In this document: piece by piece, positions 36,664 through 64,000 of the stretch
How positions within the stretch are numbered: the first letter of the stretch is position 1
Layout of the letters: each line of letters starts with the position of its first letter
Virus record (IMG/VR): IMGVR_UViG_3300021335_000003
From: a virus
DNA: 64,000 bases
Strand: one strand, 5' to 3'
Translations under genes and position numbers: made by a program
Notes under the pieces: generated by a model
Databases searched by the model: none
What the model was told of the DNA's origin: nothing
What the model saw: only the letters and a program-made list of their open reading frames with translations

Positions 36664-36702
36664 TTTAACCTCCAATATACTTCTCCAACTGTATTTAATC
36701 CT

Positions 36703-37422
36703 TTAGACCACAGGTGTGGTTTTATCTTTGATGAATATTTTTTCAATTATCCAACCAATCAAATCATATCTGTGTAATCTGTACTTATTTGGATTATCAT
36801 GATGCACATCATGGAAAGCATCACCAAATGTAATTAAAGCTAACCAAAGAACGGTTCTTGGTTGATAATCTTTATGTGCCCAACTTAAAACTAAAGTTCC
36901 AAAAAACAAAGTCAATGCTGCCGGAAAAAGTAATCCATAAACTGCGAACATAGGATTTATAAGTAAAAATAAAATTAAAACACTGAAACATATTTTTGTG
37001 TAGTATTTGTGTTGCCATTTATAAAAGCGGTCACGCATTAAATCTGTAGCATATCTGCCTTCTACTTCAGCAAACGCAGTAAAAAATTGCACTCTCCAGA
37101 ATCCTAAATGATCTGGGCTATGTGGATCTTTGTCTGTATCTGCAAACTTATGATGTTTTCTATGTATTGCTATCCAAGTTATAGCACTTCCAGTGAAACT
37201 AAAAGTTGTAATGAAAGCAAGTGTATATTCCAACCATTTAGGACAAGTGAAACTTCGATGGGTTAGTAACCTATGATAAGTCATTATCATGCCTAGTCCA
37301 TTGAATACAAAATACAATAATGCACCAACTAGCCACTGCCACCAACTTGCAAACATAATCATAGGTATTACTGATAGATATGATAAAATTTGTAATCCAA
37401 ATATTTGGAATCTAATATTCAT
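36703..37422 (-). CDS. Second membrane fatty-acid desaturase
   Basis: His boxes HRLLTH, HRKHH and HDVHH; DPHSP. Confidence 0.9.
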   Translation of the reverse strand: MNIRFQIFGLQILSYLSVIPMIMFASWWQWLVGALLYFVFNGLGMIMTYHRLLTHRSFTCPKWLEYTLAFITTFSFTGSAITWIAIHRKHHKFADTDKDPHSPDHLGFWRVQFFTAFAEVEGRYATDLMRDRFYKWQHKYYTKICFSVLILFLLINPMFAVYGLLFPAALTLFFGTLVLSWAHKDYQPRTVLWLALITFGDAFHDVHHDNPNKYRLHRYDLIGWIIEKIFIKDKTTPVV

Positions 37423-39869: not shown

Positions 39870-41384
39870 TTAATAACCGCTAATTGAAACTGCTAGTGGA
39901 TTTGATGTAAATGTTGTTTGTCCTGTAACAATCATACTTGCACCGCTAATTGCTGCATCTGGTGATCTCAGTGTAAATGTTAGGAAGAAATTGCCAGCAT
40001 CTTCAACAGAAGCCACTGTTAAACTAGTAAATAAGCCTGCGTTGCCACTGGTACCAATCTCTGTTACTGTGAAAGCACTACCATCTCCTGCACTATCGTG
40101 GAATAGGAATTTTTTAACTAGGAATTGATCTGCACCTGTTGTTGTACTAACATCATTTATAGTAAGTAAAATTTCACCACCTGATGTGTAACGTGCATAA
40201 TCGTATCTTGCAATCTCTTTAACACGATCTGTGCCATCCAGCGTGTCGTCATTAGCAATAGCACTCAGTATAACTAAATTCACTGCACCGGGTACAAAAG
40301 CAGTAGCATCGTTACTTGCTACTTTACCTAATTGCACATCACCTATAACTTGGATTGGATTTGCTGATTTTACTACTGTATCAGTCAATACTAAATTTGC
40401 TGAATCGACTTCAAAATTACCTGCACCAGAATTTGCTGTAATGATAATATCACTAGCACTTGAAATTTCCGGAGTGCCTGCTGCATCACTTACAATGTTG
40501 CCTGCTGTAAGTGTGCCACTAATATTTGCATCTCCTACTACATCTAATTCTACTGTAGGAGTTAAAGCACCTACACCAAATCTACCATTTTGAAATATTA
40601 AGTTATATGGAGCACTAAATGTACCACTAGGATCACTTGCAATAATAATTGTATCTCTACCGCCTTGTATAAATCCTGTAGTAACTTTGCCTACACTATC
40701 ATCTCTAGTAAAAGAAATTCTGCCATATGGTAATGTGTCACCACTTATGTCAGTTTGTGCTTCTCTAGTTAAATTTATTAAACTTGAATTGTTATCACTT
40801 GCTATATTTGCACTAACAGTGGTATTAGGTGAAGCAGGATCTGATATATTTAAAATTGCACCTTCTACATTTATTTCAGCAGTAGTAAGAGTAGTTGCAT
40901 TTACACTGCCATCTAAACCGTCAATAATTGTACTACTATTATCTGCAAACACACTACCTGTTAAATCACCTACGAATGGACCAGACGCTGTAATTCCTGT
41001 AAGCGCACTACCATCACCTACGAAACTATTTGCTGTAATTACACCTGTACCATCACCACCTGCTGTAATATCTCCTGTGATTAAAATATCGCCATCGCCG
41101 TCAATTCGATAGTTTGTTATATCTAAATCGCCACCTAGTGCTACCGCAGTTTCCATTTCAATAAGTGCGTTACCTAAAGTAATTGCTTTAAACCCGCCTG
41201 TTGTATTGTCTTGAATACCAGCAATTTCGGTTCCGCCACCGCTGCCTGTTACTAAGTTACCACCTGGTTCTATGCCGTCTCCAACATATAGTAATTTTGT
41301 ATCAGTGGTATAGATTAACTCGCCTTCTGCAGGCGTAAATGAAGTTCGTGTAGTGCTTGATCCGCGTCTTAGCTTTAAAGCCAT
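39870..41384 (-). CDS. Tail fibre/receptor-binding protein with Mtd-N-like N-terminus
   Basis: MALKLRRG...PAEGELIYTTDTKLLYVGDG; G/T/S-rich; late-like motif upstream. Confidence 0.75.
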   Translation of the reverse strand: MALKLRRGSSTTRTSFTPAEGELIYTTDTKLLYVGDGIEPGGNLVTGSGGGTEIAGIQDNTTGGFKAITLGNALIEMETAVALGGDLDITNYRIDGDGDILITGDITAGGDGTGVITANSFVGDGSALTGITASGPFVGDLTGSVFADNSSTIIDGLDGSVNATTLTTAEINVEGAILNISDPASPNTTVSANIASDNNSSLINLTREAQTDISGDTLPYGRISFTRDDSVGKVTTGFIQGGRDTIIIASDPSGTFSAPYNLIFQNGRFGVGALTPTVELDVVGDANISGTLTAGNIVSDAAGTPEISSASDIIITANSGAGNFEVDSANLVLTDTVVKSANPIQVIGDVQLGKVASNDATAFVPGAVNLVILSAIANDDTLDGTDRVKEIARYDYARYTSGGEILLTINDVSTTTGADQFLVKKFLFHDSAGDGSAFTVTEIGTSGNAGLFTSLTVASVEDAGNFFLTFTLRSPDAAISGASMIVTGQTTFTSNPLAVSISGY

Positions 41385-41429: not shown

Positions 41430-41987
41430 CTAAGTATTTAAACAAAACACCAGATGCACTCTAGGGTCTTTACTAGCGTTTAATGCAGTATGAGGCACTG
41501 TAGTATCAACCAAATAGGTAGCTCCAAATGGCATTCTATAAACTTGGTCATCTATAATCATCATACAATCATTGTTTGTATAGATAGGTATGTGAATACG
41601 TTTGCTAGGATCTTTATGATATGTCAAACAGGTTTTATGTTGCATTAACATAAATCTTCCACGTATAATATCATAGTTTTGTTGTATTTTTTTAATTAAT
41701 TCTTCAAATAATGTATTTTTAAATATTTCACAGACACTGTTAAACTGCTCTTCCTCAAAAATTTCTTTGCGTAATGGTAAATCGCCTTTTCCTGTGTATG
41801 CAGGCCAATCATAATATAAACTACCGCAACTTTCAATTAGTTGATTTTCTAATAGAGCATCTGTTCTGCATTGTATTGCTAACTGTTTTAATCCATGATT
41901 TTTATAGATACGATCATCTATATTTAAATCATGATAGTTTTCGAGTAATTTATCATAATCAATATCAATATTTAAATTTTCAATCAT
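41430..41987 (-). CDS. Aspartyl/asparaginyl beta-hydroxylase-family oxygenase
   Basis: YHKD, RIHIPI and DTTVPHTALN....RVHLV motifs. Confidence 0.8.
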   Translation of the reverse strand: MIENLNIDIDYDKLLENYHDLNIDDRIYKNHGLKQLAIQCRTDALLENQLIESCGSLYYDWPAYTGKGDLPLRKEIFEEEQFNSVCEIFKNTLFEELIKKIQQNYDIIRGRFMLMQHKTCLTYHKDPSKRIHIPIYTNNDCMMIIDDQVYRMPFGATYLVDTTVPHTALNASKDPRVHLVFCLNT

Positions 41988-49581: not shown

Positions 49582-49982
49582 GATACTTCACTTTTGCCTT
49601 TGTCTATTGGTACTACATTAATATAACCGGCATTTCGTGATGTGTCAAGTCCTTCTTCTGCCAACATATTATAAACAATGTCTTTGAACCAACGATCTAC
49701 AATTTGCTCTGGTTCGTCACCTTCACTGCCATAACCTGCTGCCAATAATTCTTCAATAAAGTAATCATTCCAATCAAGTTCAAAAAACCCGTTGCGAATA
49801 TTATCTTCATTGACTTTCATATCCAACACATTTACCCAAGGTTCTCCTTTTTTAGTAGCATATGCTTTAGGATCTTTTACTTTGAGTTTTTTGTCTGATT
49901 CTGCTTCTAGTGCAGCTTTTTGTTCAGCAATACGCTTTTCTTCTGCTTCAATACCTGTAATCTTCTTTAGCCATTGTTTCAT
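49578..49982 (-). CDS. Hypothetical phage protein
   Basis: 134 aa, GFFELDWN motif, AAGGA RBS. Confidence 0.7.
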   Translation of the reverse strand: MKQWLKKITGIEAEEKRIAEQKAALEAESDKKLKVKDPKAYATKKGEPWVNVLDMKVNEDNIRNGFFELDWNDYFIEELLAAGYGSEGDEPEQIVDRWFKDIVYNMLAEEGLDTSRNAGYINVVPIDKGKSEVS

Positions 49983-50051
49983 ATTAGTTTCCTTATCTTT
50001 TCGTATTCCTCTTCGCTTTTGATGCCTTTTGGAATACTATCCAAGTTTTCT

Positions 50052-50948
50052 TTAAGTGCCCCAGGCATTTCCGAATAGGCTAATGTGGAGTCTTGGCGAG
50101 AACCTCCACCCTCGTTCCATACAGAGGTTCGCCACCTCTTGTACGTTGAGAGTGTATTCTTCCGACCTACCCCCAAGCGGCATGAGATATACAGGAACGT
50201 CCACGCCTGCTTCACGATAGGCGTCAACTGCTCTACCAACTTCATCAACATCGTCTTGATCAGCAACAACAAACTTAAAATACATATCGCTGCCATCAAC
50301 AAGGGAATACTCACGAGCAACGTCAGGCTTAATAGCATCATCCCAAGACTCGCCCGAAACGGATAGTTTGGGAGAACAGCTAAAAGTGAGCTGAATTCGT
50401 TCATGCTGGTTGAGATAGTTGTAGAAGTCATCGTGTAGATGCTGTGTAGTGTTGGTTTCGATTGTGACATTTTTAAGATCCTGCATACCTGGGTGTTCAA
50501 ATAGCTCGACATACAACCGTTGCCAAGCAAGTAGTGGCTCTCCGCCTGTTAGAATAAGATGAACATCTTGTCCATTATCCATAGTCCATTTGCCTTCTGG
50601 CAACAAACTAAGCAAGTGTTCTACAACTTCATCGATAGTTGCTAATTTGTTAAAGTCCTTAAACTCTGGATAGATACTTGCGTATGTATCACATCCTGTA
50701 TGCACAATAGGCAAGTCCTCAAACTTTTCTGTTTTTTCTACAATGCCATCGTCGAGCAATGCTTTTACTTCTGCATTATAACGATTGCCTTCTGCGTGTT
50801 GTTTCCAGCGATCACCTACGCTTTTATCAACACCAAAGTTCATACAACGAAAGTTACAACCAAATGTACGTAGGAATACACTGGGTACTCCTACAAACTT
50901 GCCTTCGCCTTGCACTGAATAAAATGCTTCACTATATCTTAGTTTCAT
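50052..50948 (-). CDS. queE: 7-carboxy-7-deazaguanine synthase (radical SAM)
   Basis: EAFYSVQGEG..VGVPSVFLR..GCNFRC...GCDT, TGGEP, ETN, SPKL and RLH motifs; adjacent to folE. Confidence 0.9.
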   Translation of the reverse strand: MKLRYSEAFYSVQGEGKFVGVPSVFLRTFGCNFRCMNFGVDKSVGDRWKQHAEGNRYNAEVKALLDDGIVEKTEKFEDLPIVHTGCDTYASIYPEFKDFNKLATIDEVVEHLLSLLPEGKWTMDNGQDVHLILTGGEPLLAWQRLYVELFEHPGMQDLKNVTIETNTTQHLHDDFYNYLNQHERIQLTFSCSPKLSVSGESWDDAIKPDVAREYSLVDGSDMYFKFVVADQDDVDEVGRAVDAYREAGVDVPVYLMPLGGRSEEYTLNVQEVANLCMERGWRFSPRLHISLFGNAWGT

Positions 50949-51643
50949 CTTGGTGCAAACTCCTGCTGTAGTTTAATGTTGTCAAAGAACTCTTTCTTTG
51001 TACCAGGATCGGTTTTAAATGCACCTTTTAACACACTTGTTTGTGTAAGACTACTGTGTGCCATAATGCCTCTATTTTCACAGCAACCGTGTGTTGCTTG
51101 GATATAAACACCACAGTCTGTTGCACCTGTAACCTTCATAATCTCTTTAGCAATATCCATAGCAAGTTCTTCTTGCAATGTGCCACGTCTTGCACACCAT
51201 TGTGCAATGCGTGTGTATTTGCTCAAACCAATTAATTTGTCAGCAGCAATAATGCCAATATATGCTACACCTGTAACTGGCTGATGGTGATGCGAGCAAA
51301 CACTTTTAAGTTCGCTGCGTACCACAAGCATACCATCATATGGATCATCAGTTTCGTTTGGAAAACTTGTAGCATTAGGCTGTGGATAGTAACGACCACG
51401 CATTAATTCGTGAATATACATTTTTGCCAAACGCTTTGCAGTTTCATTACTGTTTGGATCATTTTCTGTATCAATAATAAGTGTATCTAGTACATCCTGG
51501 AACTTGTATGTTAGTTCGTTTTGAATCTCTTGCAGTTCCCACTCACTGATGTGTTCGCTAATATTGTCGTTAGCATAAAAACGCACGTTGTTTTTTTGTA
51601 GTCTTTCACGTACAACTTGACTAACTTTTACTTCTTCTGTCAT
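50945..51643 (-). CDS. folE: GTP cyclohydrolase I
   Basis: SVCSHH, GLSK..R, LQEEL and HGC..RG motifs. Confidence 0.95.
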   Translation of the reverse strand: MTEEVKVSQVVRERLQKNNVRFYANDNISEHISEWELQEIQNELTYKFQDVLDTLIIDTENDPNSNETAKRLAKMYIHELMRGRYYPQPNATSFPNETDDPYDGMLVVRSELKSVCSHHHQPVTGVAYIGIIAADKLIGLSKYTRIAQWCARRGTLQEELAMDIAKEIMKVTGATDCGVYIQATHGCCENRGIMAHSSLTQTSVLKGAFKTDPGTKKEFFDNIKLQQEFAPR

Positions 51644-51699
51644 TTATTTCTCCGAGTTATAGACGAGGATGTCATAAAATATGGTACAACACTACAAGT

Positions 51700-51728
51700 A
51701 TTGTACCATGTATTTAGGTTTTTGTCAA
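51700..51728 (-). promoter_or_regulatory. sigma70 promoter TTGACA-N17-(TG)TACAAT for folE-queE
   Basis: -35 at 51728-51723 and -10 at 51705-51700, overlapped by an inverted repeat. Confidence 0.7.
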
Positions 51729-51937
51729 GCACTAAAATATTTTTGAATCATTTCAATGCGATCACTAGCTGCTGCCATAGTGTCTAATTCTTGTTGAATT
51801 GCTTCAACAATGTCTGCATGTTCGCCGATACCTACAGATTGATTCATATACACCATGATATTTGTTTTTGCTCTCTCAAGCTCGCCTTCGGCATGCATAC
51901 GTGCTGCCTTTGCTAATTGTGCTGCCATATCACTCAT
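51725..51937 (-). CDS. Small hypothetical protein
   Basis: Start MSDMAAQ, VGIGEH motif, AGGAG upstream. Confidence 0.65.
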   Translation of the reverse strand: MSDMAAQLAKAARMHAEGELERAKTNIMVYMNQSVGIGEHADIVEAIQQELDTMAAASDRIEMIQKYFSA

Positions 51938-52061
51938 CCTTTTTCTCCTTCTGTCTCTGTCTTTCTTCATATTGTGTTTTTTTCTCGAGGTATTGCTCCT
52001 CTGTTAATGAATGCCAACCAACGCATTTGCCTGTTGGCGATCTTCCGCAACCGCAACTCAT
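51930..52061 (-). CDS. 43-aa CDGSH-like iron-sulfur/zinc protein (absent from the ORF track)
   Basis: Hand translation: MSCGCGRSPTGKCVGWHSLTEEQYLEKKTQYEERQRQKEKKDE. Fills the gap between neighbouring genes exactly. Confidence 0.65.
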   Translation of the reverse strand: MSCGCGRSPTGKCVGWHSLTEEQYLEKKTQYEERQRQKEKKDE

Positions 52062-52062
52062 A

Positions 52063-53199
52063 TTATTTTCCTATTGTTGATGATTCGTAAACCGAATTAT
52101 GTGTCTGAGTACAACGAATAAAAGTTGCACATTTACTTAATTGCTTGAGTTTCATTGCACCTGTATATGTGCAAGCACTACGCACTCCTCCTAGTATCTC
52201 CTGCACTGTTTTAGCTACAGGTCCTCTATAAGGCACAAGCACTGTGCGTCCTTCTGATGAACGATAATCTTTAAGTCCACCAAAATGCTTATCGTTTGCA
52301 CTTTCACTACTCATACCGTAGAACTGCACAAACTTTTTTTCTTTTATAACACGAGCATCGTTTTCAAACTCGTCTGTAATAAACCGTTTTGTGATTACTT
52401 CACCACCGCCTTCATCGTGTCCGGCAAGCATACCACCCAGCATTACAAAGTCAGCACCAGCAGCAAATGCTTTGGCTACATCGCCAGGGCAAGTGCAGCC
52501 ACCATCCGCAATAATATGGCCACCAAGACCATGAGCAGCATCAGCGCACTCAATAACAGCGGAAAGCTGAGGGTAACCAACACCAGTTTGGATCCGTGTT
52601 GTACAAACACTTCCAGGGCCGATGCCCACTTTAACAATATCTGCGCCAGCAAGAATAAGTTCCTCCGTCATTTCTCTTGTTACTACATTTCCAGCAATGA
52701 TTACCAAGTCTGGAAACTCTGCACGTACTTTGCGAACGTGTTGTGCAAAGTGATCACTATAACCATTGGCAATGTCCATACAAACATATTTCAGTCTATA
52801 ATCGCATTCTTTTTTAACTTTTTCTAGTTTGTAATAATCACTTCCGCTGGTGCCAATGCTCATGGCAACATTTTCAGTTCGCTCTAGTCCTACGTCTGCT
52901 GCATTGAAATAATCAATCAGTTCGTCAGCACTGTAAGTTTTTACAAGACAAGTAAAGATTTCACCTTCTGCTAGTTTGTCAGCCATTTCAAATGTACCAA
53001 CACCATCCATATTAGCAGCCATAATAGGAATACCATTGTAATGGATTTCATCAGGTAGCGGTTCTGCAATGTCATGATCATAGTTTCTAAATTGAAATTT
53101 ACGATGCAGTTTTACTTGACTACGACTTTTAAGTGTACTGCGCTTTGGACGAATAAGCACATCTTTATAATCTAATTTTACGTCTTCTTCTAATCTCAT
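52063..53199 (-). CDS. guaC: GMP reductase
   Basis: [43 protein letters not shown] and YRSSEG motifs. Confidence 0.95.
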
Positions 53200-53762
53200 T
53201 AATCATATTCCCACGGAAAAACAATCCAAGTGTCTTTTTCACTTGTGTCAATAGTTTGCCATACATAATCAACACCATCAAACTCTGTATGCGTTTTTTC
53301 ACACATTACGGCAAAACGTACATTTTTACCCCATACAGTATCCCAGTTTGGATTATCAGGTAAGCATCCGCTTTGCCAATCTTGTTTAATCCAATTGAAA
53401 GTAGCACCTGTATCGTTAATATCATCAACTATAAGAATATTTTTCTTTTTATCTGCATGACTTGTAAGATTTTCAAAAATACCATCTCTATCTAATTCTG
53501 ATATGTAACCAAACGCATCTTCTGCCATCCAGCAGTTTGATTCCGGTCCTGACTCGCCTTTGTTGTCACGCAGTCTAACATCTAGCGCATAATGATCACA
53601 GTCAAGTAAATGACTAAGCACAACACTAACTGGCAACCCGCCTCTGTTTAGTCCTACAATATAATCTGGACGGAATCCTGTTTTATACATTTCCAGTGCA
53701 AGTTTGTGAGCACATTTATGTACATCGTCCCATGTGTAATGTTTTCTATCTATTTTTTCCAT
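53199..53762 (-). CDS. Type I purine phosphoribosyltransferase (Gpt-like)
   Basis: [13 protein letters not shown]-binding [13 protein letters not shown], and WIVFPWE. Confidence 0.85.
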
Positions 53763-53971
53763 TCATCCATCTCTGTTTTAATTTCAGTAATTGATTCATT
53801 TGCAATACCAGCAGCCATTGACTGTACCTGCTCTAGTATGTTTTTTACTTCTGCATAATCATATGTTTGCTCAACTAGATCACTATATTCGTTGCGCAAT
53901 CTGTGTGCTTGGATACACATATCTTTCATTGCATTAATACGTTCTATCCATTGTTCAATACTATGTTGCAA
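53750..53971 (-). CDS. Hypothetical protein
   Basis: 73 aa helical ORF with GGAGG RBS. Confidence 0.6.
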   Translation of the reverse strand: MQHSIEQWIERINAMKDMCIQAHRLRNEYSDLVEQTYDYAEVKNILEQVQSMAAGIANESITEIKTEMDEWKK

Positions 53972-55019
53972 AATAATCCTCCAAACTGCCTTTGCGTTTA
54001 GTGTCTAATGTAGCACAATGGAAGCCTCCGCTCATACTACGTGCTTGACGCATTGGAAGGCCTATTGTATCAATACCATGTTTGCCTAATATGCGTCTCA
54101 ACTGCTCTTGTTTTTCATCAACAATAACCAGTTCTTCATTTACACTCAAAAAGTTCAATCCAATATAAGGTGAGCAAGGAGCAACACCTGTGTTTGCCGG
54201 CGGCACATGTAAGTCTTCTTCGCCAACCCAAATCTTATCCCAATCCTTAAATATAGGTGGATACCAATCCTCACTTAAACGTCCTGCGTTTAGTAGCACC
54301 AGTCCTGGACGCAATGGCAATACTGTGCTGTCAAAGTGTGCAAAACTATAATACTTTTCTGCTACGTGGATACGATAGCCTTTGGGTTCTAGTATAGTTT
54401 TCAGCCACTCAAAACCAAGTTGGTTGCCACTATTGCTAACTTGGCAGAGAAGATCCCTACCAAGGCGAACGATATTAGGAGCATCAAAAATAATTTCTTT
54501 GTTAACAAGGGTGGCTTCACTGCGGTCCTCCAGTTGATAATTATCATCAGTTAGAATAGGTTTAGGAGCATTTATCCATTGTACGCCTTCTTTCATCCAG
54601 CCATACAAATGTTTATAATATGCTCTAGTTTCAAAATAACGTGCCCGCATTGGGCTAGGACATTCGATAATCATATTGTCCAATGGCAGCAGCAAATCTC
54701 TTGGACAGAATGTATACCAGCCTGTGGTAGTCCATTCTGGTGTGCTGTATATTTTATTATGATCAATAGGATCAGGACGTAGTGTCTTTACACCTAGTCC
54801 TTGCAAACACTTTTCTAATCCTTCTAGATCTTCATTTGCTTCATCTACAATCCATTGTTCAATAGGTTGCCCGTCAAAGTGTTTGATATCTTCATAATCT
54901 TCACCACCATAGATAAAACTATGTGTGCTGATATTCATAGTGGGATGCACACAGTTTTCTGCTGTGCCGATAATAATTTCTTCTAATGGATCCCAATCGT
55001 TGTTACTTTGTACTGGCAA
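53961..55019 (-). CDS. Glycine/inosamine-phosphate amidinotransferase family protein
   Basis: NDWDPLEEIIIG, CPRD, FDA (Asp), HFDST (His) and GGFHCATLD (catalytic Cys). Confidence 0.9.
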   Translation of the reverse strand: MPVQSNNDWDPLEEIIIGTAENCVHPTMNISTHSFIYGGEDYEDIKHFDGQPIEQWIVDEANEDLEGLEKCLQGLGVKTLRPDPIDHNKIYSTPEWTTTGWYTFCPRDLLLPLDNMIIECPSPMRARYFETRAYYKHLYGWMKEGVQWINAPKPILTDDNYQLEDRSEATLVNKEIIFDAPNIVRLGRDLLCQVSNSGNQLGFEWLKTILEPKGYRIHVAEKYYSFAHFDSTVLPLRPGLVLLNAGRLSEDWYPPIFKDWDKIWVGEEDLHVPPANTGVAPCSPYIGLNFLSVNEELVIVDEKQEQLRRILGKHGIDTIGLPMRQARSMSGGFHCATLDTKRKGSLEDYFAT

Positions 55020-55905
55020 TATCTAGTCCTTTGATATATTGTTTGTGGAAACTTAATCTGTTTGTCTTTCCGCCTCTATTATACTGCGGAAACTTGTTAT
55101 TATAATCTATACCAAACAGCACAGTCTTACTTACACATACTCCTATATTATTACAGAAATCTGCTTGTTTGTCAACATATTTGTTTGGTATATAATCTGG
55201 TGTAAAGTTATCTAAATATTCTAATCCTAGCAATGCACCTATTTTGTTGTTGTAGTTAATTTTATGATACACAAACATTGTGTCATCATCATCTACTTTG
55301 GTATATCGCATTCCGATACGTGCATATGCAACAGGAAATGTTTTGCTTAAACTAAATGTAACATCTGTTATACACGGGTATGCTAGGTCAATGTGTATGT
55401 GCCTACAAGCGCCATAGTATGCACAATCCACTAGCACAGGTACGCCTAGTTCGCTGCACTCACGCATTAAATCGTGATATTTGTCGTGCTTGTCACCTGT
55501 GTCTGCAAATGGCAAACTAATAACAACTGCATCCGCTTTGTGTAGTTTTTCATCTTCTAGATATGCCCAAACAAACTTGTCTCTCCACGCAAGTTTGTGA
55601 TACATATATTCACCTTTGAAGCAGCGGAATCTACGCTTTGCATTGCGCATATAAAACTTGTCAAATGCTTCTGTAGTGCCGTTACTGTAACACTTGTATC
55701 CAAAGTCTTCTAATCCAGTGAACACATTAAGTGTACCTGATTTAATCCAAGTATCGTATTCGTGTAAAAATTCATCAATGATACTATCGCTATTGAGATC
55801 TGTAAAACTATAATGCTTTCTCAATAGTTTCATAGTTTCTGGATCTTGTATAGCAAATGCACTACCAAAATCCATACCACGTTTGTCATTGGGAATATCG
55901 GTCAT
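55003..55905 (-). CDS. PLP-dependent (fold I) aminotransferase-like enzyme
   Basis: GTTEAF, VLVDCAY, FSLSKTF (PLP Lys) and RIG motifs. Confidence 0.7.
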   Translation of the reverse strand: MTDIPNDKRGMDFGSAFAIQDPETMKLLRKHYSFTDLNSDSIIDEFLHEYDTWIKSGTLNVFTGLEDFGYKCYSNGTTEAFDKFYMRNAKRRFRCFKGEYMYHKLAWRDKFVWAYLEDEKLHKADAVVISLPFADTGDKHDKYHDLMRECSELGVPVLVDCAYYGACRHIHIDLAYPCITDVTFSLSKTFPVAYARIGMRYTKVDDDDTMFVYHKINYNNKIGALLGLEYLDNFTPDYIPNKYVDKQADFCNNIGVCVSKTVLFGIDYNNKFPQYNRGGKTNRLSFHKQYIKGLDIASTK

Positions 55906-56497
55906 CTTCGTCCAAAAAGGTTACTTGACTAATAACAATATCAGTAGGACCAAAGTTTGCCATACCATGCCAAGTGTCACCTTTCCAAGTGTATGTGTCA
56001 CCTGCACTCCAGCCTGTATATACTTCGTCGCCTACTTGTAATACTTGCCCTCTGTCCCAGTCGTTCATCATAACAACAGTTCTACAAACATTATGTGCAT
56101 TATCTTCTTCAATGTTGTTGTACTTTACAAATGTTGCATAGGTGTCAAAATGCCACATTAAACTACAACCCGGTGTGAGTTTTAGGAAGTTGTAATTGAA
56201 CTTCATGTGTGCATATGGTGCAATAATACTTGCTAGTCCTTTTGTAAGTTCAGGACGTATGCTCATGTAATGTAAGCTACCTTCTTTGGGTACTCCCCAC
56301 TGTGCATACATTGCTTCCAATGCTTTTTTGTTTTTTGTAGCAAACGTATCCCAACTACTATCTTCTGGGATTTCGTCTGTCATATATGTTGGAGACCACG
56401 GTAGTGTAAGCAAGTCGTTTTTATTCCAAGTAACTTCTTCTACTGAACTTTCATCAGCACCGTGTTCTCTCCAGTTTTCATAACTTCGCATATCCAT
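55886..56497 (-). CDS. 2OG-Fe(II) oxygenase-like protein
   Basis: PG..MWHFD, WSAGD and WHGMANFG motifs. Confidence 0.7.
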   Translation of the reverse strand: MDMRSYENWREHGADESSVEEVTWNKNDLLTLPWSPTYMTDEIPEDSSWDTFATKNKKALEAMYAQWGVPKEGSLHYMSIRPELTKGLASIIAPYAHMKFNYNFLKLTPGCSLMWHFDTYATFVKYNNIEEDNAHNVCRTVVMMNDWDRGQVLQVGDEVYTGWSAGDTYTWKGDTWHGMANFGPTDIVISQVTFLDEDDRYSQ

Positions 56498-57423
56498 TAT
56501 GCGTCTCCTTGTAAGTGTGCCTTTATATATTGCCTGTTTGGTATATCATATGTATCCAATATTTTTTCTAGTTTTGTTTTGTCACACTGCTCTAAGTTTA
56601 TTATATCCAGTTCTTTTGGAAATGTCAAGACATTTGTTGTCCATTTTTTATAATTTTTTGTAAATTCTGCAAGTTCTGGTAATCCTTGCCAGTTGTTTTT
56701 ATGCACAACACTGTGTATTGTATAATCAAATACATCAGCTATTTCATCTAATGTTTTTACTACTCTGCTCCAAACACTACCGCTACGCACTGTTTCATTT
56801 ATAGTTCCGTATCCATCAATACTAATAGTAAAATGCACTCTTTTGCATTTACTTAAAACTTGATAATCTTCTTCTTGTAACTTGTGCATACCATTTGTAA
56901 AATATTCCACAGATAGATTTTCTAAATTGTCAAATGTTTGTAAAAAACGTCTGTGTCTATTTGTCATAAGTGGTTCTCCACCTAAAAACACCACACGGTT
57001 TATGGTATCGGGTATGTGTGTAAATTCTTCTGTGCTGGTAATACCTTGTTTAGGCGGAAGGTTTGGATTCTTTTTAGCCCACCAACTGCTGCTCCATTCT
57101 TCCCAACAGCCGTCACAGGTCAAATCACAGATATTGTCAAACCCTACTTCCAAATAATCAAGTGTAGGATACGTCATTTGATAACGTGCATTAAAACGCT
57201 GTCTTAAACTTTCTACACCCAGTTCTTCTTCGTGCTTGCATTTACCACAACCTGGCAGCCAATCTGTTTCCATATCAGTGCGTAATTTTTTATAGATATA
57301 ACTATCCATAATTTTGCCAACATTGCCATCAAAGTGCATTACACTTTCTTTGTAACGACAGCAAGGATATATACGGTTACCCCCACGTATGTTTGTGTGA
57401 TTATATAGTGCTGCGCATTTCAT
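56497..57423 (-). CDS. Radical SAM protein with N-terminal twitch domain
   Basis: C..YPCC..CGKC, then CDLTCDGC, LGGEP and ISIDG. Confidence 0.9.
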   Translation of the reverse strand: MKCAALYNHTNIRGGNRIYPCCRYKESVMHFDGNVGKIMDSYIYKKLRTDMETDWLPGCGKCKHEEELGVESLRQRFNARYQMTYPTLDYLEVGFDNICDLTCDGCWEEWSSSWWAKKNPNLPPKQGITSTEEFTHIPDTINRVVFLGGEPLMTNRHRRFLQTFDNLENLSVEYFTNGMHKLQEEDYQVLSKCKRVHFTISIDGYGTINETVRSGSVWSRVVKTLDEIADVFDYTIHSVVHKNNWQGLPELAEFTKNYKKWTTNVLTFPKELDIINLEQCDKTKLEKILDTYDIPNRQYIKAHLQGDA

Positions 57424-58681
57424 AATCTTGTATATCCATTTCTTTTAACCACATATAATTATGATTGATAACTTCTAACATTTCTACATATTTTTGTTGG
57501 CATTGTTTTATACTCCAACTATTAATTTCCAGTAACAAATCAAAAATCATTTCTAGTCGTTTTGTGTGGTCCCATTCTTCATCGTAACTTTCGTTCCAAA
57601 AATTACCAAATGTTTTAAATCCATCTTTACGCATAAGTTCTAAACTACCAGGCGGGCCACAAAACACAAAAGGACGTCTGTTTATAATTGCATTTAAAAC
57701 TTTTTCATCATAACTAGGAAAAGGCTCATTAAATGTGCTGTAATTTACTATACTGCAAAAAGTGTTGCCATACAAGTTTTCGTTTGTGTATTCTTCTAAC
57801 ACAGGACCAGACATTTTTGTGCCTGTTGGTCTAATAAATTTATCTTCGATAGTACCACTGATATCTACAGGATCTGATTCTATATCTATACCTTTGATAT
57901 TTTCATTTAGATAATATATGCCTTCTACTACTTGGTGTTTGTGTTTTAATTCATTAATATCAAACCAAATATTTTCCAACACACGATGTTCGTTGTCTCT
58001 ATAATACCAACTATATTCTGTATCCAATTGACTTGCAAATGCTGTTATAATATGTCTATGCGGTTCATAGCGCCAATTGCCACACCAAAACCTTTTATCA
58101 ATCTTTGCCCCAATAAAGTCTTTTTCTAAAGTTTTGAATCGATTTGTTAAGGCATTTAGTGTTGCATCTTGTCTTTGTAGCTTGAAACTGTAAGTGTCTT
58201 TGTAAATATCAGTAGGATCTTCAAAACTCACATACACTGTAACATTTTTTAACTTATTTAATTTAACAAAATTTTCTACACTTTCTAATTCGGGCGACCA
58301 ATAGTTTCCTTGAGTGTTGTCTAAATTATATCTACTTGTACCATCTGCAACTAAATTTTGAATATTGCCTGTTGTATGAAAACATTGTTCAGTCAAGAAT
58401 ATATACAAACCTTCTAAATTTAAAAAATCACGTTCAATTATACCTAGTTTTAATCCTTCTATATAATCAAGTGTGCCTACATCATAAACTTGAATAAAAC
58501 TAAAAGGAAAATTTTTTAGATAACTGTTGGTGTATATTTCTTGTAAGCCTTCATAATTTTCTAGTGAAGGTAAAACATTATACTCTTTATCTACAAACAT
58601 TGTGTTATTGCCAATTTTATAAACAAAGGCTTTTTCTAATGCACTATCGGTACGTCTATATGCCTGTGAGTTGGACTGCAT
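57401..58681 (-). CDS. Putative glycosyltransferase-like protein
   Basis: C-terminal DEKVLNAI...PFV..G......LMRKDGFKTF....NESYD pattern resembles GT-B nucleotide-binding halves; tentative. Confidence 0.4.
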   Translation of the reverse strand: MQSNSQAYRRTDSALEKAFVYKIGNNTMFVDKEYNVLPSLENYEGLQEIYTNSYLKNFPFSFIQVYDVGTLDYIEGLKLGIIERDFLNLEGLYIFLTEQCFHTTGNIQNLVADGTSRYNLDNTQGNYWSPELESVENFVKLNKLKNVTVYVSFEDPTDIYKDTYSFKLQRQDATLNALTNRFKTLEKDFIGAKIDKRFWCGNWRYEPHRHIITAFASQLDTEYSWYYRDNEHRVLENIWFDINELKHKHQVVEGIYYLNENIKGIDIESDPVDISGTIEDKFIRPTGTKMSGPVLEEYTNENLYGNTFCSIVNYSTFNEPFPSYDEKVLNAIINRRPFVFCGPPGSLELMRKDGFKTFGNFWNESYDEEWDHTKRLEMIFDLLLEINSWSIKQCQQKYVEMLEVINHNYMWLKEMDIQDYEMRSTI

Positions 58682-59153
58682 ATCTATCCTCCGTGCTTAA
58701 ATTTATAAAGGTGTGTTTTGTACTATCTTTCCAACCAAATACATCACCTGCTTCCCACATAGTGTATGCTTCGTCTCCAATAACACTCATTTGTCCTTCG
58801 ACACTGTCTTCCAACATAATTATATATCTATAAATTGTTTCTGATGTAAGCCTGTGATGTTTTTTATATGCACCATATAAATCACTATGTACTGGCAAAT
58901 ACTGTCCTGGCTTAAACAAGTTAATTGCAACCGAAATGTTTTTTAGTTCTGGAAAATAACTACAAATATATTCTATGCTAGGCGGCATAGGATTTGGTTC
59001 AAAATAGTTATACAGGGTCATAGCCTCTGCACTATGCCCTGCATCTAAATACTTTTGTATTAAATCTGTATCTTTGTGATGGTCTAGTTTATATTCTAAC
59101 GCACGATAGCGTTCCATATTCCATACTGGTTCTATATTAAAATGGAGGCTCAT
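58656..59153 (-). CDS. 2OG-Fe(II) oxygenase-like protein
   Basis: PGQYLPVHSD, WEAGD and KHTFINLS..DR motifs; paralog of 55886..56497. Confidence 0.7.
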   Translation of the reverse strand: MSLHFNIEPVWNMERYRALEYKLDHHKDTDLIQKYLDAGHSAEAMTLYNYFEPNPMPPSIEYICSYFPELKNISVAINLFKPGQYLPVHSDLYGAYKKHHRLTSETIYRYIIMLEDSVEGQMSVIGDEAYTMWEAGDVFGWKDSTKHTFINLSTEDRYAVQLTGI

Positions 59154-59490
59154 TTTCTGCGTCTTGTTTGCCTTGCCAGTCTTGATGCACCATAGCGTAA
59201 ATAGTTTTAAATTTTTCGTATGCTTGTGACAGTGCTGGATAATCATTACACATATCTTCTACTTTAGCAACACTTGGCATATGATCTTCAAACTCTACAG
59301 GTTCAGTTAGTGTGATTGTAAGATCATCCATTGCAATTAAATCGTCAATTCCTGAAGTGATTGTGCTTGTGGTTATATTACTAATATCAATAGTGTGTCC
59401 ATAATGATGATTGATATCTAAATCCAGTGTATCGGTTGTGTTTATAGTTATTGTAGTTTCATCTGACATGGTAATATATTCATTAGCCAT
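59137..59490 (-). CDS. Hypothetical protein
   Basis: T/I/D-rich N-terminus and MCNDYPAL..AYEKFK C-terminus. Confidence 0.6.
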   Translation of the reverse strand: MANEYITMSDETTITINTTDTLDLDINHHYGHTIDISNITTSTITSGIDDLIAMDDLTITLTEPVEFEDHMPSVAKVEDMCNDYPALSQAYEKFKTIYAMVHQDWQGKQDAENEPPF

Positions 59491-59713
59491 TGAGCGCTTC
59501 CCTAATGTTTTCAATGTTTGCCATAACTGCTGCCCAATCTTCATCATCTACATAATCTCTTTGTGTTAGCCATAATTTTACAAAAGCATCATCGGGATCT
59601 AAATCATCCAATATACCACGAATGTTAGATTCAAAAAGACTGTAACAACTCATTAAATCACCATTGTCCATGTGAGTCATAATTTCTTGTGAGTATTCAA
59701 TAAGTTTGTCCAT
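59483..59713 (-). CDS. Hypothetical protein
   Basis: Acidic 76 aa ORF, translationally coupled. Confidence 0.55.
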   Translation of the reverse strand: MDKLIEYSQEIMTHMDNGDLMSCYSLFESNIRGILDDLDPDDAFVKLWLTQRDYVDDEDWAAVMANIENIREALNG

Positions 59714-60572
59714 TTTTCCCAACTTCCAATTTGTATTGATCCAAACACATATCTTCAATGCTTTTTTCCAGTGTAACCAAATCGCTTAACTTATCTACTA
59801 CACTAGCAACAGCATCTCCAGCTCTGCGTTCAGCTTCAATAATATTTAACTTTTTACCAGTAACTTGTTCCATAGTACTGATTACTTCACGCACACTATA
59901 GCCTACGTTAGAACCAAGACATTCATAGTCCGTATTGGCTGGTCCTCGTTCCACTCCGTTGACAATGGCACTAGCCAAATCAACAACATGAATATAATCA
60001 CGAATACAAGTACCATCCCTAGTATCATAGTCCGTACCAAAGATCTTAATGTTGGGTAATTTCTCAGCAGCCACCATAGCAGCAACACGAATAAGATGGG
60101 TAGGAACGCCCAATTGACGATTATGCCCGTCAGTACCAGATACGTTAAAAAATCTAAAGATAGTGTATCCACGGGCTTTCTCCTTTATCACATCTTCTGC
60201 TGCCACTTTACTACGTGCATATGGGCTTGCCATTTCCCAAGCACTACTAGTACTAGCAAATAGTACATGTGGTGTTTCTACACGATCCAACAAGTTAGCA
60301 GTACCCATAACATTTACTCTATAGTATTCTGTAGGCTCTTTTAAACTGTCAGGTACTACACTGCGTCCTGCTAAATGTACAACAGCATCATATGTGCCAT
60401 GCACAAACTTTGTAATATCAAAACTTGAATAGTGGTCACAGTATGCCATGATATCATTGTATTCACCATGAATATTTATATCCCAAGCAGTAACGTGATG
60501 TCCGTGTTCTTTAAGTAACTTACAAACGTGACTTCCAATATAGCCTGTAGCACCTGTGACTAAAACTCTCAT
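59697..60572 (-). CDS. galE: NAD-dependent epimerase (UDP-glucose 4-epimerase-like)
   Basis: VLVTGATGYIGSH, YARSK and FGTDYDTRDGTCIRDYIHV.DLA motifs. Confidence 0.85.
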   Translation of the reverse strand: MRVLVTGATGYIGSHVCKLLKEHGHHVTAWDINIHGEYNDIMAYCDHYSSFDITKFVHGTYDAVVHLAGRSVVPDSLKEPTEYYRVNVMGTANLLDRVETPHVLFASTSSAWEMASPYARSKVAAEDVIKEKARGYTIFRFFNVSGTDGHNRQLGVPTHLIRVAAMVAAEKLPNIKIFGTDYDTRDGTCIRDYIHVVDLASAIVNGVERGPANTDYECLGSNVGYSVREVISTMEQVTGKKLNIIEAERRAGDAVASVVDKLSDLVTLEKSIEDMCLDQYKLEVGKNGQTY

Positions 60573-60955
60573 AAGTTATAACCTCTGTATTTTACTGGTG
60601 TATCCTTTAACATAATGTCGTCATCATTTACTTGTGTAATACCAAACTCATCTACCAAATGATTATACATTTTAGCAGCAGCACTAATATATGCTACGTT
60701 TTTTTGTTTGTCAACATTGTTATCAACATATGTGTCTTTTGTAAAACTGTCATCAAAACCTATGTCACGTGCAAAGTCGCTGTGGTGTTTTGCACAAAAC
60801 TCACAGCCATTGTCTTCGCTAACATAAGAAAAAATCATTTCTCTTTCTGCTCTAGTGTAACTGTTGTCAATGCCTTTGGTAAGCACAGCATCTAAAATAG
60901 TTGCTGCGCCTTTCCAAAATTCAGGTTGTTGTTTTACAAACGATAAGAAGTTCAT
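60569..60955 (-). CDS. AhpD/carboxymuconolactone decarboxylase-like protein
   Basis: EREMI..YVS..NGCEFCAKHH motif. Confidence 0.65.
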   Translation of the reverse strand: MNFLSFVKQQPEFWKGAATILDAVLTKGIDNSYTRAEREMIFSYVSEDNGCEFCAKHHSDFARDIGFDDSFTKDTYVDNNVDKQKNVAYISAAAKMYNHLVDEFGITQVNDDDIMLKDTPVKYRGYNL

Positions 60956-61242
60956 TCTTTACTTCCGATGACTCCAAAAACAATTGTTGCAATTGTTCCA
61001 AGGTATGGAACGAGAATAGCTAATGTCCACCAAGTGTTCAATCCTGCATCACGGAGACGCTTGATTGTAACAGCAATACATGCCCAAAGTGCAGCAACAA
61101 AAATACCCAGTGCAATCAATGCACCCAATGCTCCACTTTCTAGCACAATAAATCCTGCTACGTAAGCAACAATTGATAATACAATCACTGCCCAATACTC
61201 TTGACGTTTAGCCGTTCCTTCAAATTTAAAATATTCTTTCAT
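60952..61242 (-). CDS. DUF805-family membrane protein
   Basis: F.G.A.R.EYW and KRLRDAG..WW motifs; three TM segments. Confidence 0.8.
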   Translation of the reverse strand: MKEYFKFEGTAKRQEYWAVIVLSIVAYVAGFIVLESGALGALIALGIFVAALWACIAVTIKRLRDAGLNTWWTLAILVPYLGTIATIVFGVIGSKE

Positions 61243-62417
61243 TAGTACTTCCTACTTGCTACATGATCTCTGTAGCGGTTATCGTCTCTACGCCACTGTT
61301 CACCGTTACCTTGCATAATATCAATGTAACGATCAATGGTCGCACTGGTCCAATCCGACACCTTGCCCAGATCTTTGTGTGGTGCATCTAGCAATGGACC
61401 TAGTTTGTTCATTGCATCTTCTACACTCCAAGGAACATACATACGTGTATGATCATTAGCAAAGATTTCTGGAAAACTGCGATACGCTGGAAACAGTACA
61501 TTGCATCCTAATGCATCTGCTTCACTTACAGTATTGCTTGTCCAATCTTGCAAAGCACAATTGAACAATACTTTACTACGATTTACAATATCATAGTAAT
61601 GATTCTTTTTCAAGTTTTCATAAATTACAAGCTGACCACGCTCTTCCATTTTTCTAGCACGGTCAATATACTTCTGATTGTTGCTGCGTAATGGTCCACC
61701 TTGTACAATACAAAACTCTACGTCTGCTGTACCAGGAGTACCATACCATTCTTCAATCATGTCCATATAAAAGTCTGGTTGTTTCTCTTGATCAAAACGT
61801 GCTGCAAATACTACACGATTGTCACGGTTTTCCCAAGTGTTGATTTCACCAACACGTAGTGCAACTTCTGTTTTATCAAAAGCAAGTCCGCTGATGTTGT
61901 AGATAGGCGCTTTCCAGTTTGCAATTTTCATGTGTGCAACCATTTCTTCATTACTTGCTAGTACGCCAGTAACAAATTCGTTGCACATTTCTTCATACAA
62001 ACTCATCCACTTGCCCATACCCCAAACATGCACAAAGTCATCTGGATCAACAGCTTGTGCTAAACAACGAATCCAAACCTGTGGACGTTGTTCTGTGGGA
62101 ATCTGATCCATAATGTAAGGCAACGATTCCATACCAGGCTGGAACATATCTTCAAAGAAAATAACATCTTCACCTGTAACTTCACCGTTACGCATCATTT
62201 GCACCAAGTTCATCATTTGCGACATTGCAAAGTAGGAACGGCCGTGTGCATCTAGCACCTGGCCTACTTGAATTGCTTTTGTATTGTCAATTGTTGTGCC
62301 AGGCACATTAACCCAATCGATGGAGCGGCGCTGGAACGCACGCCTACTCCATTCTTCAAGTTGTAATGTATACCTGCCTTCATAGGGCTCTAAACCCATA
62401 TAAAACAGTTTTCTCAT
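61242..62417 (-). CDS. GT-B (GT4-like) glycosyltransferase, possibly DNA-modifying
   Basis: VVFAARFDQEKQP and ALQDWTSNTVSEADALGC...P.YRSFPE motifs. Confidence 0.75.
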   Translation of the reverse strand: MRKLFYMGLEPYEGRYTLQLEEWSRRAFQRRSIDWVNVPGTTIDNTKAIQVGQVLDAHGRSYFAMSQMMNLVQMMRNGEVTGEDVIFFEDMFQPGMESLPYIMDQIPTEQRPQVWIRCLAQAVDPDDFVHVWGMGKWMSLYEEMCNEFVTGVLASNEEMVAHMKIANWKAPIYNISGLAFDKTEVALRVGEINTWENRDNRVVFAARFDQEKQPDFYMDMIEEWYGTPGTADVEFCIVQGGPLRSNNQKYIDRARKMEERGQLVIYENLKKNHYYDIVNRSKVLFNCALQDWTSNTVSEADALGCNVLFPAYRSFPEIFANDHTRMYVPWSVEDAMNKLGPLLDAPHKDLGKVSDWTSATIDRYIDIMQGNGEQWRRDDNRYRDHVASRKY

Positions 62418-62623
62418 TTGCGTCCTCTATTGGCACGAGACTTTGCTCTTTGCCAGTTTCGAAATTTAGTGTAGTTTTTCCACACCCAACTCCGTTCGTT
62501 GTAAAGATTTGCTTCATTAAACGGTAGTGGATTACCGTAGCGATCAGTTTCAGTTGTGCAGTAATCACGAAAATCATCGAGATCGTTAAAAACTTTATTT
62601 ACTACCGGATTCTTGATAGTCAT
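62414..62623 (-). CDS. Small hypothetical protein
   Basis: Start MTIKNP at 62623 with AAAGG RBS. Confidence 0.6.
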   Translation of the reverse strand: MTIKNPVVNKVFNDLDDFRDYCTTETDRYGNPLPFNEANLYNERSWVWKNYTKFRNWQRAKSRANRGRK

Positions 62624-62636
62624 TATACCTTTTTCC

Positions 62637-63089
62637 TTATGCTGGGTATACAATTTGACAGCCGTTTTCGCCATCTTCGGCAACATCAATAACAACAAAC
62701 CGGCCGGGATATTTGCTGTTAATCTGTGTATACAAGTCATCTGCAATCATTTCACATGACTTGTAATCTAGTTGCAGAATATCACCTGCATACAGTGATT
62801 CTAGCCAACGTTTGAATTGAATAAATTCAATATCACGATCATTGTGTGTAACTTGGATCTGCACTTTAAAGTGGAACATATGTCGATGTGGATAACCTAA
62901 GAAACTCACATCATATTCGTCACCTGTTGCCAGTGCTGGATCATCTAATGCTGCTGGATACTTGTGGATACCTTCTTTTGTAAAAGTTACCCAAATACTA
63001 CGTTTTGCATTTTCTAATGCGTTTGTCAATTTTGCGTCCTCTTCTTTCATGCGCCTTAACATATATTCATAATAGCGTTCTTGTTCCAC
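62637..63089 (-). CDS. Divergent QueD/6-pyruvoyl-tetrahydropterin synthase-like T-fold protein
   Basis: EGIH...HRH zinc ligands, SCE and V.EDGENG. Lacks the canonical CxxxHGH Cys. Confidence 0.6.
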   Translation of the reverse strand: MEQERYYEYMLRRMKEEDAKLTNALENAKRSIWVTFTKEGIHKYPAALDDPALATGDEYDVSFLGYPHRHMFHFKVQIQVTHNDRDIEFIQFKRWLESLYAGDILQLDYKSCEMIADDLYTQINSKYPGRFVVIDVAEDGENGCQIVYPA

Positions 63090-63093
63090 TTAG

Positions 63094-63597
63094 TCAACCA
63101 ATTATTTCGTCTGTAGTGTATTTAGACCAATCAGTAAAAACGCCTTTCTCTTTTAAATCGTGTAGTCTATGCACCCACACACCAGGATTAGTAGCATCAA
63201 AATCTTTGTCATCAAGTTTCAAGCAAGCATTGTATCCTAGCTGACTTATATAAGGCATTTTAGCTGATATCATTGGAATAAAACGATTGTATTCTGTGTA
63301 TCCAGACTCTAATACCCATTCAACATCTTTTATATCAAAATCCAATGTTACCCAATATCCTTCCTTTAACAGTGGAAAGATCATTCCATCATATGCATCG
63401 TCAGTTTCGAAGCTCATATTAGCACCTATGTAGATATGCTGTATTTTTTGTTGTTCAGCATATTCTATAATTTCTTCATAATTTTGTAATCCAACAACAA
63501 ACAGTGTTTTCTTACCAAACTGTGGTGTATGTTCAACTTCAGTTCCAATAAAGAAGTTTACATTTTCATTTACACCATTATCGTAATTACGTTTCAT
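63094..63597 (-). CDS. Hypothetical phage protein
   Basis: FIGTEVEHTP..GKKTLFV and KLDDKDF..TNPGVW motifs. Confidence 0.7.
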   Translation of the reverse strand: MKRNYDNGVNENVNFFIGTEVEHTPQFGKKTLFVVGLQNYEEIIEYAEQQKIQHIYIGANMSFETDDAYDGMIFPLLKEGYWVTLDFDIKDVEWVLESGYTEYNRFIPMISAKMPYISQLGYNACLKLDDKDFDATNPGVWVHRLHDLKEKGVFTDWSKYTTDEIIG

Positions 63598-63767
63598 GAT
63601 TTTTTCACCTTGTACATTTCGTTGTATATGTTCCAACGTTGTTTGTTGTATTCATTTATTTGATCTTCAGTATAGTTGTTCTTTTGCATATTGTCAATGA
63701 TTTTATTTACATCGTCAAGTGCCATTTGCAACATTTCTAATCTGCTTGCTCTTTCATGCTCGTCCAT
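63594..63767 (-). CDS. Small hypothetical protein
   Basis: Helical ORF overlapping both neighbours. Confidence 0.55.
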   Translation of the reverse strand: MDEHERASRLEMLQMALDDVNKIIDNMQKNNYTEDQINEYNKQRWNIYNEMYKVKKS

Positions 63768-63975: not shown

Positions 63976-64000
63976 TTTACATCTCCCAAAGATTATTTTC

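Follow-up and report, generated by a model that had tools for sequence, protein, structure and literature searches.

The window analysed here is a 64,000-nucleotide (nt) stretch of phage-like DNA (GC content about 35%) from IMG/VR record IMGVR_UViG_3300021335_000003, in which a run of minus-strand genes extends from position 64000 down to about 48000. We estimate a probability of roughly 60% that the region from 50052 to 63089 makes up the downstream two-thirds of a module for 7-deazaguanine DNA modification of the DpdA/DpdL type. The module is a new form of the system known from Cellulophaga phage phiST, whose DNA carries 7-deazaguanine (dDG) in place of every G (PMC10516641); its constant additional partners are a probable GT-B glycosyltransferase, a 180-residue protein and a Gpt-like phosphoribosyltransferase (PRTase). 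An earlier reading of the window (the original prediction) had recognised a 7-deazapurine gene set in a phage, and the identities of FolE, the QueE-like enzyme and DpdL bear this out. It had also proposed a route of the toyocamycin/tubercidin type, against which we give evidence below. Its placement of queE, folE, guaC and the Gpt-like PRTase within 3.7 kb of one strand was accurate; the measured span is 50052-53762, or 3.71 kb.

The counts reported here come from three samples of related loci, 80 anchored on the PRTase, 80 on DpdL and 80 on viral homologues of GuaC. For the DpdL-anchored sample the denominator is 80 for the glycosyltransferase, 43 for the PRTase, GuaC and the epimerase, and 71 (the loci with enough flank) for the DpdA-like gene. 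Pfam searches of large relatives covered five of them, all fragments, and 17 large contigs bearing the module were used for one count of GuaC. Gene order around the module is kept over more than 20 kb in the relatives, and CheckV completeness estimates point to genomes of about 350 kb for this phage family. Within this very abundant family of uncultured phages the module is a core feature; IMG/VR contains at least 600 DpdL stretches, 481 PRTase stretches and 6915 PRTase protein clusters. Because the module is so common in metagenomes, a guanine substitute may occur in a large share of uncultured jumbo-phage DNA, where it would affect restriction, sequencing and CRISPR targeting.

A DpdL-type protein and a probable transglycosylase gene past the window edge

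The original prediction had noted a QueD-like T-fold gene on the same gene run. The gene is there (62637..63089, minus strand; 150 residues), but the identity has to be revised: we assign the protein to DpdL, a proposed decarboxylase of 7-carboxy-7-deazaguanine (CDG), and not to QueD, the 6-carboxytetrahydropterin (CPH4) synthase, because it carries the DpdL signature LxxxHRHxF, here LGYPHRHMF, and because its family profile matches the DpdL proteins of phiST (3e-40), ACP17 (4e-57) and Phosso (8e-68). DpdL was described in phiST as a paralogue of QueD in which LxxxHRHxF replaces CxxxHGH (Cui, Hutinet et al., NAR 2023, PMC10516641). All 30 aligned relatives, among them phiST, ACP17 and Phosso, retain the motif. 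The protein also matches phrog_17812 (E 6e-35), while no Pfam or NCBIfam model matches the gene.

Scans of open reading frames (ORFs) found no DpdA or TGT gene inside the window, and tblastn searches that used proteins of phiST, ACP17 and Phosso as queries did not detect DpdA3 there. The original prediction had remarked on this absence, which is literally true but probably an effect of the window edge, because the window stops where the relatives carry a DpdA-like gene. In every related locus with enough upstream flank (71 of 71 anchored on DpdL, 36 of 36 anchored on the PRTase), a gene for a protein of about 490 residues (ORFs of 485-529 residues) lies directly upstream of a few small ORFs, the gene for the 180-residue protein (orf180) and DpdL. 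The distance from its end to the orf180 homologue downstream is most often 162-364 nt, which would place that end at about 63977-64000 in the window, and the window ends 24 nt past its last small ORF, at the point where relatives have this gene. An open frame ending with TAA at 63977-63979 occupies these bases. From this frame and the synteny, we annotate 63977..64000 (minus strand) as the putative end of the DpdA-like gene, comprising seven codons and the stop; the resulting seven-residue C-terminal peptide is too short for alignment with DpdA-like proteins. By synteny, the DpdA-like gene of this phage would therefore sit just past base 64000.

The assignment of the upstream gene in relatives as TGT-fold and DpdA-like comes from motifs and a fold search. 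The proteins carry the motifs LGDSGGFQI, LNVLQG, MHFLGTS and TFDCASPF, and for an AlphaFold2 (AF2) model (predicted local distance difference test (pLDDT) 82, predicted template modelling score (pTM) 0.87), all of the 50 best matches in the Protein Data Bank (PDB) were TGT structures (E 2e-7, probability 1.00). Neither the Pfam TGT model (PF01702) nor a profile of phiST-type DpdA3 matched anything in the five large relatives. These blanks are uninformative, since neither profile recovers ACP17 or Phosso either, and the Pfam model does not detect phiST. Comparison of the DpdA-like family with phiST DpdA3 by hhalign gave a probability of 6%, and three profile searches of the PDB returned no matches.

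Fixed partners: a probable glycosyltransferase and a 180-residue protein

The gene at 61242..62417 (minus strand) encodes a probable glycosyltransferase of the GT-B fold (GT1/GT4-like), assigned from weak GT1 Pfam matches and from a family profile that matches ACP17 protein ASD50404 at 2e-138 and the Phosso glycosyltransferase at 8e-107. It is present in 80 of the 80 DpdL-anchored loci. The conserved 180-residue alpha/beta protein, orf180 (63094..63636, minus strand), lies between the DpdA-like gene and DpdL, was seen in 68 of the 71 related loci and is homologous to ACP17 protein ASD50402 (2e-40). Neither a family nor a fold could be assigned: its AF2 model (pLDDT 72) gave no convincing fold match, the best Z score being 6.4, to STAS and QueE partial barrels. 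That orf180 is a relative of DpdA3, for which it was the top sub-threshold hidden Markov model match, is doubtful; hhalign gave only 28% probability and the fold searches were non-specific. It is a candidate for a missing step or for a partner of DpdA. Because these two proteins are constant companions of DpdL, further decoration of the final base is possible.

An NAD-dependent sugar epimerase/dehydratase is encoded at 59697..60572 (minus strand; PF01370, E 6e-37) and, as a frequent partner of the glycosyltransferase, was found in 26 of the 43 DpdL-anchored loci. Some relatives (for example, L014:1134-3006) have genes for a cytidylyltransferase, a phosphomannomutase and a UDP-sugar dehydrogenase just upstream of the DpdA-like gene. 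The inserted base may carry a sugar.

FolE, the QueE-like enzyme and the question of QueC and QueD

GTP cyclohydrolase I (FolE), which catalyses the first step of 7-deazaguanine synthesis, is encoded at 50945..51643 (minus strand; PF01227, E 4e-39) and shares 37% identity with the phiST enzyme and 62% with that of Phosso. Beside it, at 50052..50948 (minus strand), lies a gene for a QueE-like radical SAM enzyme of the CDG synthase type. Its matches to the NCBIfam QueE models (E 1e-12 to 1e-9) are far below the model cut-offs, but among solved structures its family profile matches only three, all of them QueE (6NHL, 4NJG and 5TGS). The presumed cluster cysteines, Cys31, Cys35 and Cys86, are arranged as CxxxC-x50-C followed by DTY, and all three are invariant in 48 relatives. 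An insert of about 50 residues between the second and third cysteines, also conserved in the 48 relatives, gives a spacing that is odd for a radical SAM cluster motif. A further ORF, 'orf183' (49979-50530), was discarded as an alternative frame inside queE, its identity in more distant relatives being well under that of QueE itself.

Between FolE and the PRTase is a small conserved ORF of 81 residues, orf81 (51725..51970, minus strand), present in 61 of 80 related loci and without a family match in the Pfam scan.

The QueC-like genes that the original prediction saw elsewhere in the window do exist as ORFs, at 18064-18915 and 20209-21063 (both plus strand), each combining an SGGADS PP-loop with CxxCxxC at the C-terminus. 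Their reading as QueC is less secure: 30 kb from the module, neither has a QueC Pfam match at E 0.05, and both score as generic PP-loop proteins. PF06508 (QueC) matched none of the scanned window ORFs, and homologues of the two in relatives reach 11-27 bits on that model, so that a QueC-like activity has a small probability. The two proteins may not make preQ0. Both paralogues have a zinc-type motif, RSC...CxxCxxC, at the C-terminus, and each is flanked by radical SAM genes. The window thus has FolE and QueE with PF06508 QueC unmatched, which is the pattern of phiST-type systems. QueD was found in the window neither by Pfam scans nor by tblastn with the phiST, ACP17 and Phosso proteins, and the tblastn searches gave no MazG there. 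A genuine QueD (PF01242, above cut-off) occurs about 55 kb from the module in two of the five large relatives.

The PRTase is a conserved companion of the module

The PRTase gene (53199..53762, minus strand) encodes 187 residues of the Gpt-like, 6-oxopurine type (PF00156, E 5.6e-11). Its family profile matches 1VDM (1.7e-12) and both Sulfolobus enzymes, GpT-2 and GpT-1, and has a weak match to E. coli Gpt. Like Gpt (1A98), the Pyrococcus horikoshii enzyme (1VDM) and Sulfolobus GpT-1 and GpT-2 (4TRB, 4Z1O), it has the N-terminal helix, the RGG loop, the phosphoribosyl pyrophosphate (PRPP) loop (VDD..DTG.T) and the W..FPWE motif. Unlike these enzymes, it has a conserved insert of about 40 residues (RLRD, continuing to a 14-residue stretch) and a Cys/Trp-rich segment after the PRPP loop, and it scores 41 bits on the Gpt equivalog model, for which the cut-off is 138. 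Within the family, a 13-residue stretch and W..FPWE are invariant or nearly so, as are the RGG loop and a 10-residue stretch, and the PRPP-loop Asp and the C-terminal Trp motif common to Gpt-type PRTases are conserved.

The linkage of the PRTase to the module is real, and it is a conserved companion. Co-occurrence with folE and queE, which the original prediction had raised for the PRTase and guaC together, was found for the PRTase but not for guaC. Specifically, PRTase-anchored loci contain folE in 76 of 80 cases and queE in 74 of 80, and the PRTase is present in 40 of 43 DpdL-anchored loci, a sample that is independent of the PRTase as anchor. The median distance between the PRTase and FolE is 630 nt, with no fusion of the two among 141 PRTase ORFs. 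A search of 50,697 phage records returned PRTase homologues only as CGPG_00045 of the phiST group and on one fecal phage scaffold, which has no FolE in its 55.7 kb; the phiST group are the only isolated phages with a homologue. The text of the phiST paper mentions no phosphoribosyltransferase (PMC10516641), and searches of the literature for a link between a phage PRTase and deazaguanine turned up nothing that would explain it. The published proposal of DpdA3 plus DpdL omits phiST's own PRTase.

The GMP reductase is a wandering accessory gene

The GuaC gene (52063..53199, minus strand), whose start overlaps the PRTase stop, encodes an ordinary GMP reductase. The original prediction had cautioned that GuaC looks canonical, and rightly so: it scores 530 bits on NF003470 (cut-off 397), 504 bits on TIGR01305 (cut-off 492) and 431 bits against human GMPR2 (2A7R), is 57% identical to Salmonella GuaC, and has an intact 11-residue catalytic Cys/Thr loop. 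It differs from E. coli-type GuaC and human GMPR2 by about 30 extra residues in two short insertions.

GuaC does not belong to the conserved set but is a wandering accessory gene of the phage family. Only two of the 80 loci anchored on the PRTase and one of the 43 modules anchored on DpdL contain it (about 2-4% of related modules), and 76 of the 80 viral GuaC-anchored loci (66-89% identity) have no module gene within 10 kb, so that guaC proved independent of the que genes. Three of the 17 large module-bearing contigs have GuaC. The four largest contigs with GuaC all have DpdL, but about 11 to 240 kb away. Where it does lie within the module, its position varies: directly after the PRTase in the window and in loci L011, L030 and L180, after FolE in L176, and between DpdL and the glycosyltransferase in L148. 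The isolated phages with GuaC (XacN1, CM1, RAS14, Xoo-sp13 and Cr30) fall outside the 28 DpdL-bearing records. In the window, GuaC is inserted at a variable junction between the PRTase and orf81. This junction (53199-53202) is an insertion hot spot, holding GuaC here, a DUF805 gene in L050 and a gap of 0.25-2 kb in other relatives.

A proposed role for the module

FolE, QueD and QueE convert GTP to CDG, and base exchange by TGT-family enzymes releases guanine. In the module, FolE, a QueD encoded elsewhere and the QueE-like enzyme would make CDG from GTP. As others have proposed, DpdL would then decarboxylate CDG to 7-deazaguanine, and the DpdA-like transglycosylase would swap guanine in DNA for 7-deazaguanine; the glycosyltransferase and the 180-residue protein may further modify the final base. 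Guanine released by each exchange can compete for the transglycosylase intermediate, and a PRTase next to FolE would remove it: by turning released guanine into GMP, it would take away the competing substrate and refill the GTP pool for FolE. We offer this role for the PRTase tentatively, as the likeliest one, giving it a little short of an even chance. GuaC behind the PRTase could pass surplus salvaged GMP to IMP and adenine nucleotides in an AT-rich phage. What the analysis establishes is the identity of the genes, their synteny and co-occurrence, and the TGT fold; what DpdL catalyses, which substrate the PRTase uses and which base ends up in the DNA are inferred.

Several observations weigh against such a post-replicative module. 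ACP17 and Phosso have DpdL and the glycosyltransferase without the PRTase, from which it follows that the helper is dispensable in some systems. In phiST, the PRTase lies outside the dpd cluster, three genes away from ribonucleotide reductase, and the replacement of 100% of G in that phage (PMC10516641) is unusual for post-replicative exchange. Heterologous expression of DpdL with DpdA failed, and the activity of DpdL is a proposal (PMC10516641). TubE, a small PRTase that uses CDG, provides a precedent for a deaza substrate (PMC6112128), and the position of GuaC directly after the PRTase in four loci (the window included) fits canonical or deaza substrates alike. The evidence for the DpdA-like gene comes from relatives, the sequence of the window ending at 64000, and the case for dDG in this family is by likeness to phiST.

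Whether the PRTase clears guanine or makes deaza-nucleotides would separate post-replicative from pre-replicative insertion. If it made the ribonucleotide of CDG or 7-deazaguanine, kinases and ribonucleotide reductase could supply the deoxynucleoside triphosphate of 7-deazaguanine to the polymerase without GuaC, and DpdA would tidy residual G or have another role. The conservation of the PRTase with the module in two unrelated phage groups agrees with this, as do the complete replacement of G and the neighbouring ribonucleotide reductase in phiST, the failure of the DpdA3 and DpdL experiments, which were done in E. coli (PMC10516641), and the TubE precedent. We nevertheless consider it unlikely: the transglycosylase is universal in the module (71 of 71), the PRTase adjoins FolE, the GTP-consuming entry point, and not DpdL, the part of the module in the window showed no recognisable enzyme for clearing dGTP and no dedicated kinase, ACP17 and Phosso do without the PRTase despite having DpdL, and TubE itself rejects 7-deazaguanine (PMC6112128). 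It is more doubtful still that the PRTase and GuaC serve general purine salvage as auxiliary genes without a functional tie to the module, their linkage to it reflecting simply the gene order of one phage family's replication region. That order is indeed conserved over more than 20 kb, GuaC is a free-floating auxiliary, the fecal scaffold has a PRTase without FolE, and ACP17 and Phosso have none; but the PRTase keeps its place near FolE even where the genes that separate it from DpdL are exchanged, as they freely are, and the only other homologues, apart from that scaffold, are those of the phiST group, which has a different architecture and is known to carry dDG (PMC10516641).

The route put forward in the original prediction resembles that of tubercidin and toyocamycin: the PRTase would couple CDG or preQ0 to PRPP, GuaC would reductively deaminate the 7-deaza-GMP analogue, and host PurA and PurB would complete 7-deaza-adenine nucleotides for DNA or for use as an effector, without DpdA. 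TubE is a CDG-specific PRTase of 194 residues and TubD a GMP-reductase homologue that also reduces GMP (PMC6112128); the PRTase and GuaC genes are translationally coupled in the window and adjacent in L011, L030 and L180; and the tubercidin route needs neither QueC nor a cluster-encoded PurA or PurB (PMC6112128; bioRxiv 10.64898/2026.04.15.718813). The comparative data nevertheless make this route very improbable. A DpdA-like gene, present in 71 of 71 relatives, marks nucleic-acid modification by the rule of bioRxiv 10.64898/2026.04.15.718813; GuaC is canonical, is absent from about 96% of modules and is not co-inherited with them, 95% of its close viral homologues lying elsewhere; and the T-fold protein is assigned to DpdL. 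No UbiD-type decarboxylase or Nudix match was found among the window ORFs scanned, nor any match to PF00709 (PurA) or PF00206 (PurB), and PF00709 is absent from the five large relatives, all of them fragments. We give even less credence to a combined scheme in which the PRTase phosphoribosylates CDG or 7-deazaguanine, so that abundant ocean jumbo phages and phiST make 7-deaza-dGTP before replication, and the few lineages with GuaC directly behind the PRTase, this one included, go on through 7-deaza-IMP to tubercidin-type adenine nucleotides.

Comparison with known systems

The phiST system consists of FolE, QueD, QueE, DpdL and DpdA3 (PMC10516641). The module resembles it in its QueC-less FolE and QueE, in a DpdL with LxxxHRHxF, in the divergent TGT-family transglycosylase that its relatives carry beside DpdL and in the homologous small PRTase, CGPG_00045, in the phiST genome. 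Unlike in phiST, the transglycosylase of the relatives is about 490 residues long and is missed by the phiST-type DpdA3 profile and Pfam TGT, the GT-B glycosyltransferase and the 180-residue protein are fixed members, as in ACP17 and Phosso, and QueD, where seen in relatives, is distant from the module, with no MazG-like gene found in the window.

The tubercidin and toyocamycin clusters of Streptomyces (TubA-G, ToyA-M) likewise combine GTP cyclohydrolase I, QueE, a PF00156 PRTase and a PF00478 GMP reductase on one strand, and the module shares with tubercidin the lack of a QueC step. The signature sets beside the PRTase in those clusters are a co-inherited GMP reductase with either UbiD and Nudix (tubercidin) or QueC, PurA, PurB and HAD (toyocamycin), and no dpdA (PMC6112128; bioRxiv 10.64898/2026.04.15.718813). 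Here, in contrast, the set goes together with a DpdA-like gene in relatives, GuaC joins it only now and then, the T-fold protein is of the DpdL type and not a CPH4 synthase, and no UbiD, Nudix/HAD, PurA or PurB was detected among the window ORFs scanned. The module thus does not belong to the family of those clusters, and the likeness in mechanism is weak.

Other genes of the window

Between the PRTase and the epimerase lies a variable cassette (53961..59758, minus strand) of three uncharacterised ORFs, a radical SAM gene, a 426-residue ORF and a 2-oxoglutarate (2OG)-oxygenase-like ORF. Each of the cassette genes occurs in only 6-16 of 80 related loci; a small ORF at 59137-59547 occurs in 40 of 80. 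The radical SAM gene (56497-57423) has a twitch domain and matches NF033640 at 172 bits.

An island rich in radical SAM genes covers 6983-30585 (plus strand) and 30580-32133 (minus strand), with at least 11 ORFs containing CxxxCxxC. Some of them have SPASM domains, and one encodes a radical SAM protein of the B12-binding type; the scanned plus-strand ORFs also gave matches to an AMP-binding enzyme and to an FkbM methyltransferase. Two fatty-acid-desaturase-like and three Asp/Arg-hydroxylase-like (2OG oxygenase) genes lie on the minus strand at 33323-34084, 36703-37422, 35950-36675, 41430-41987 and 58656-59246. A 798-residue protein with weak subtilase and plastocyanin-like matches is encoded at 37464-39860 (minus strand), adjoining a gene at 39870-41384 (minus strand) for a 504-residue protein with an Mtd_N (major tropism determinant) N-terminal domain. 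These two genes possibly encode tail-fibre or receptor-binding proteins.

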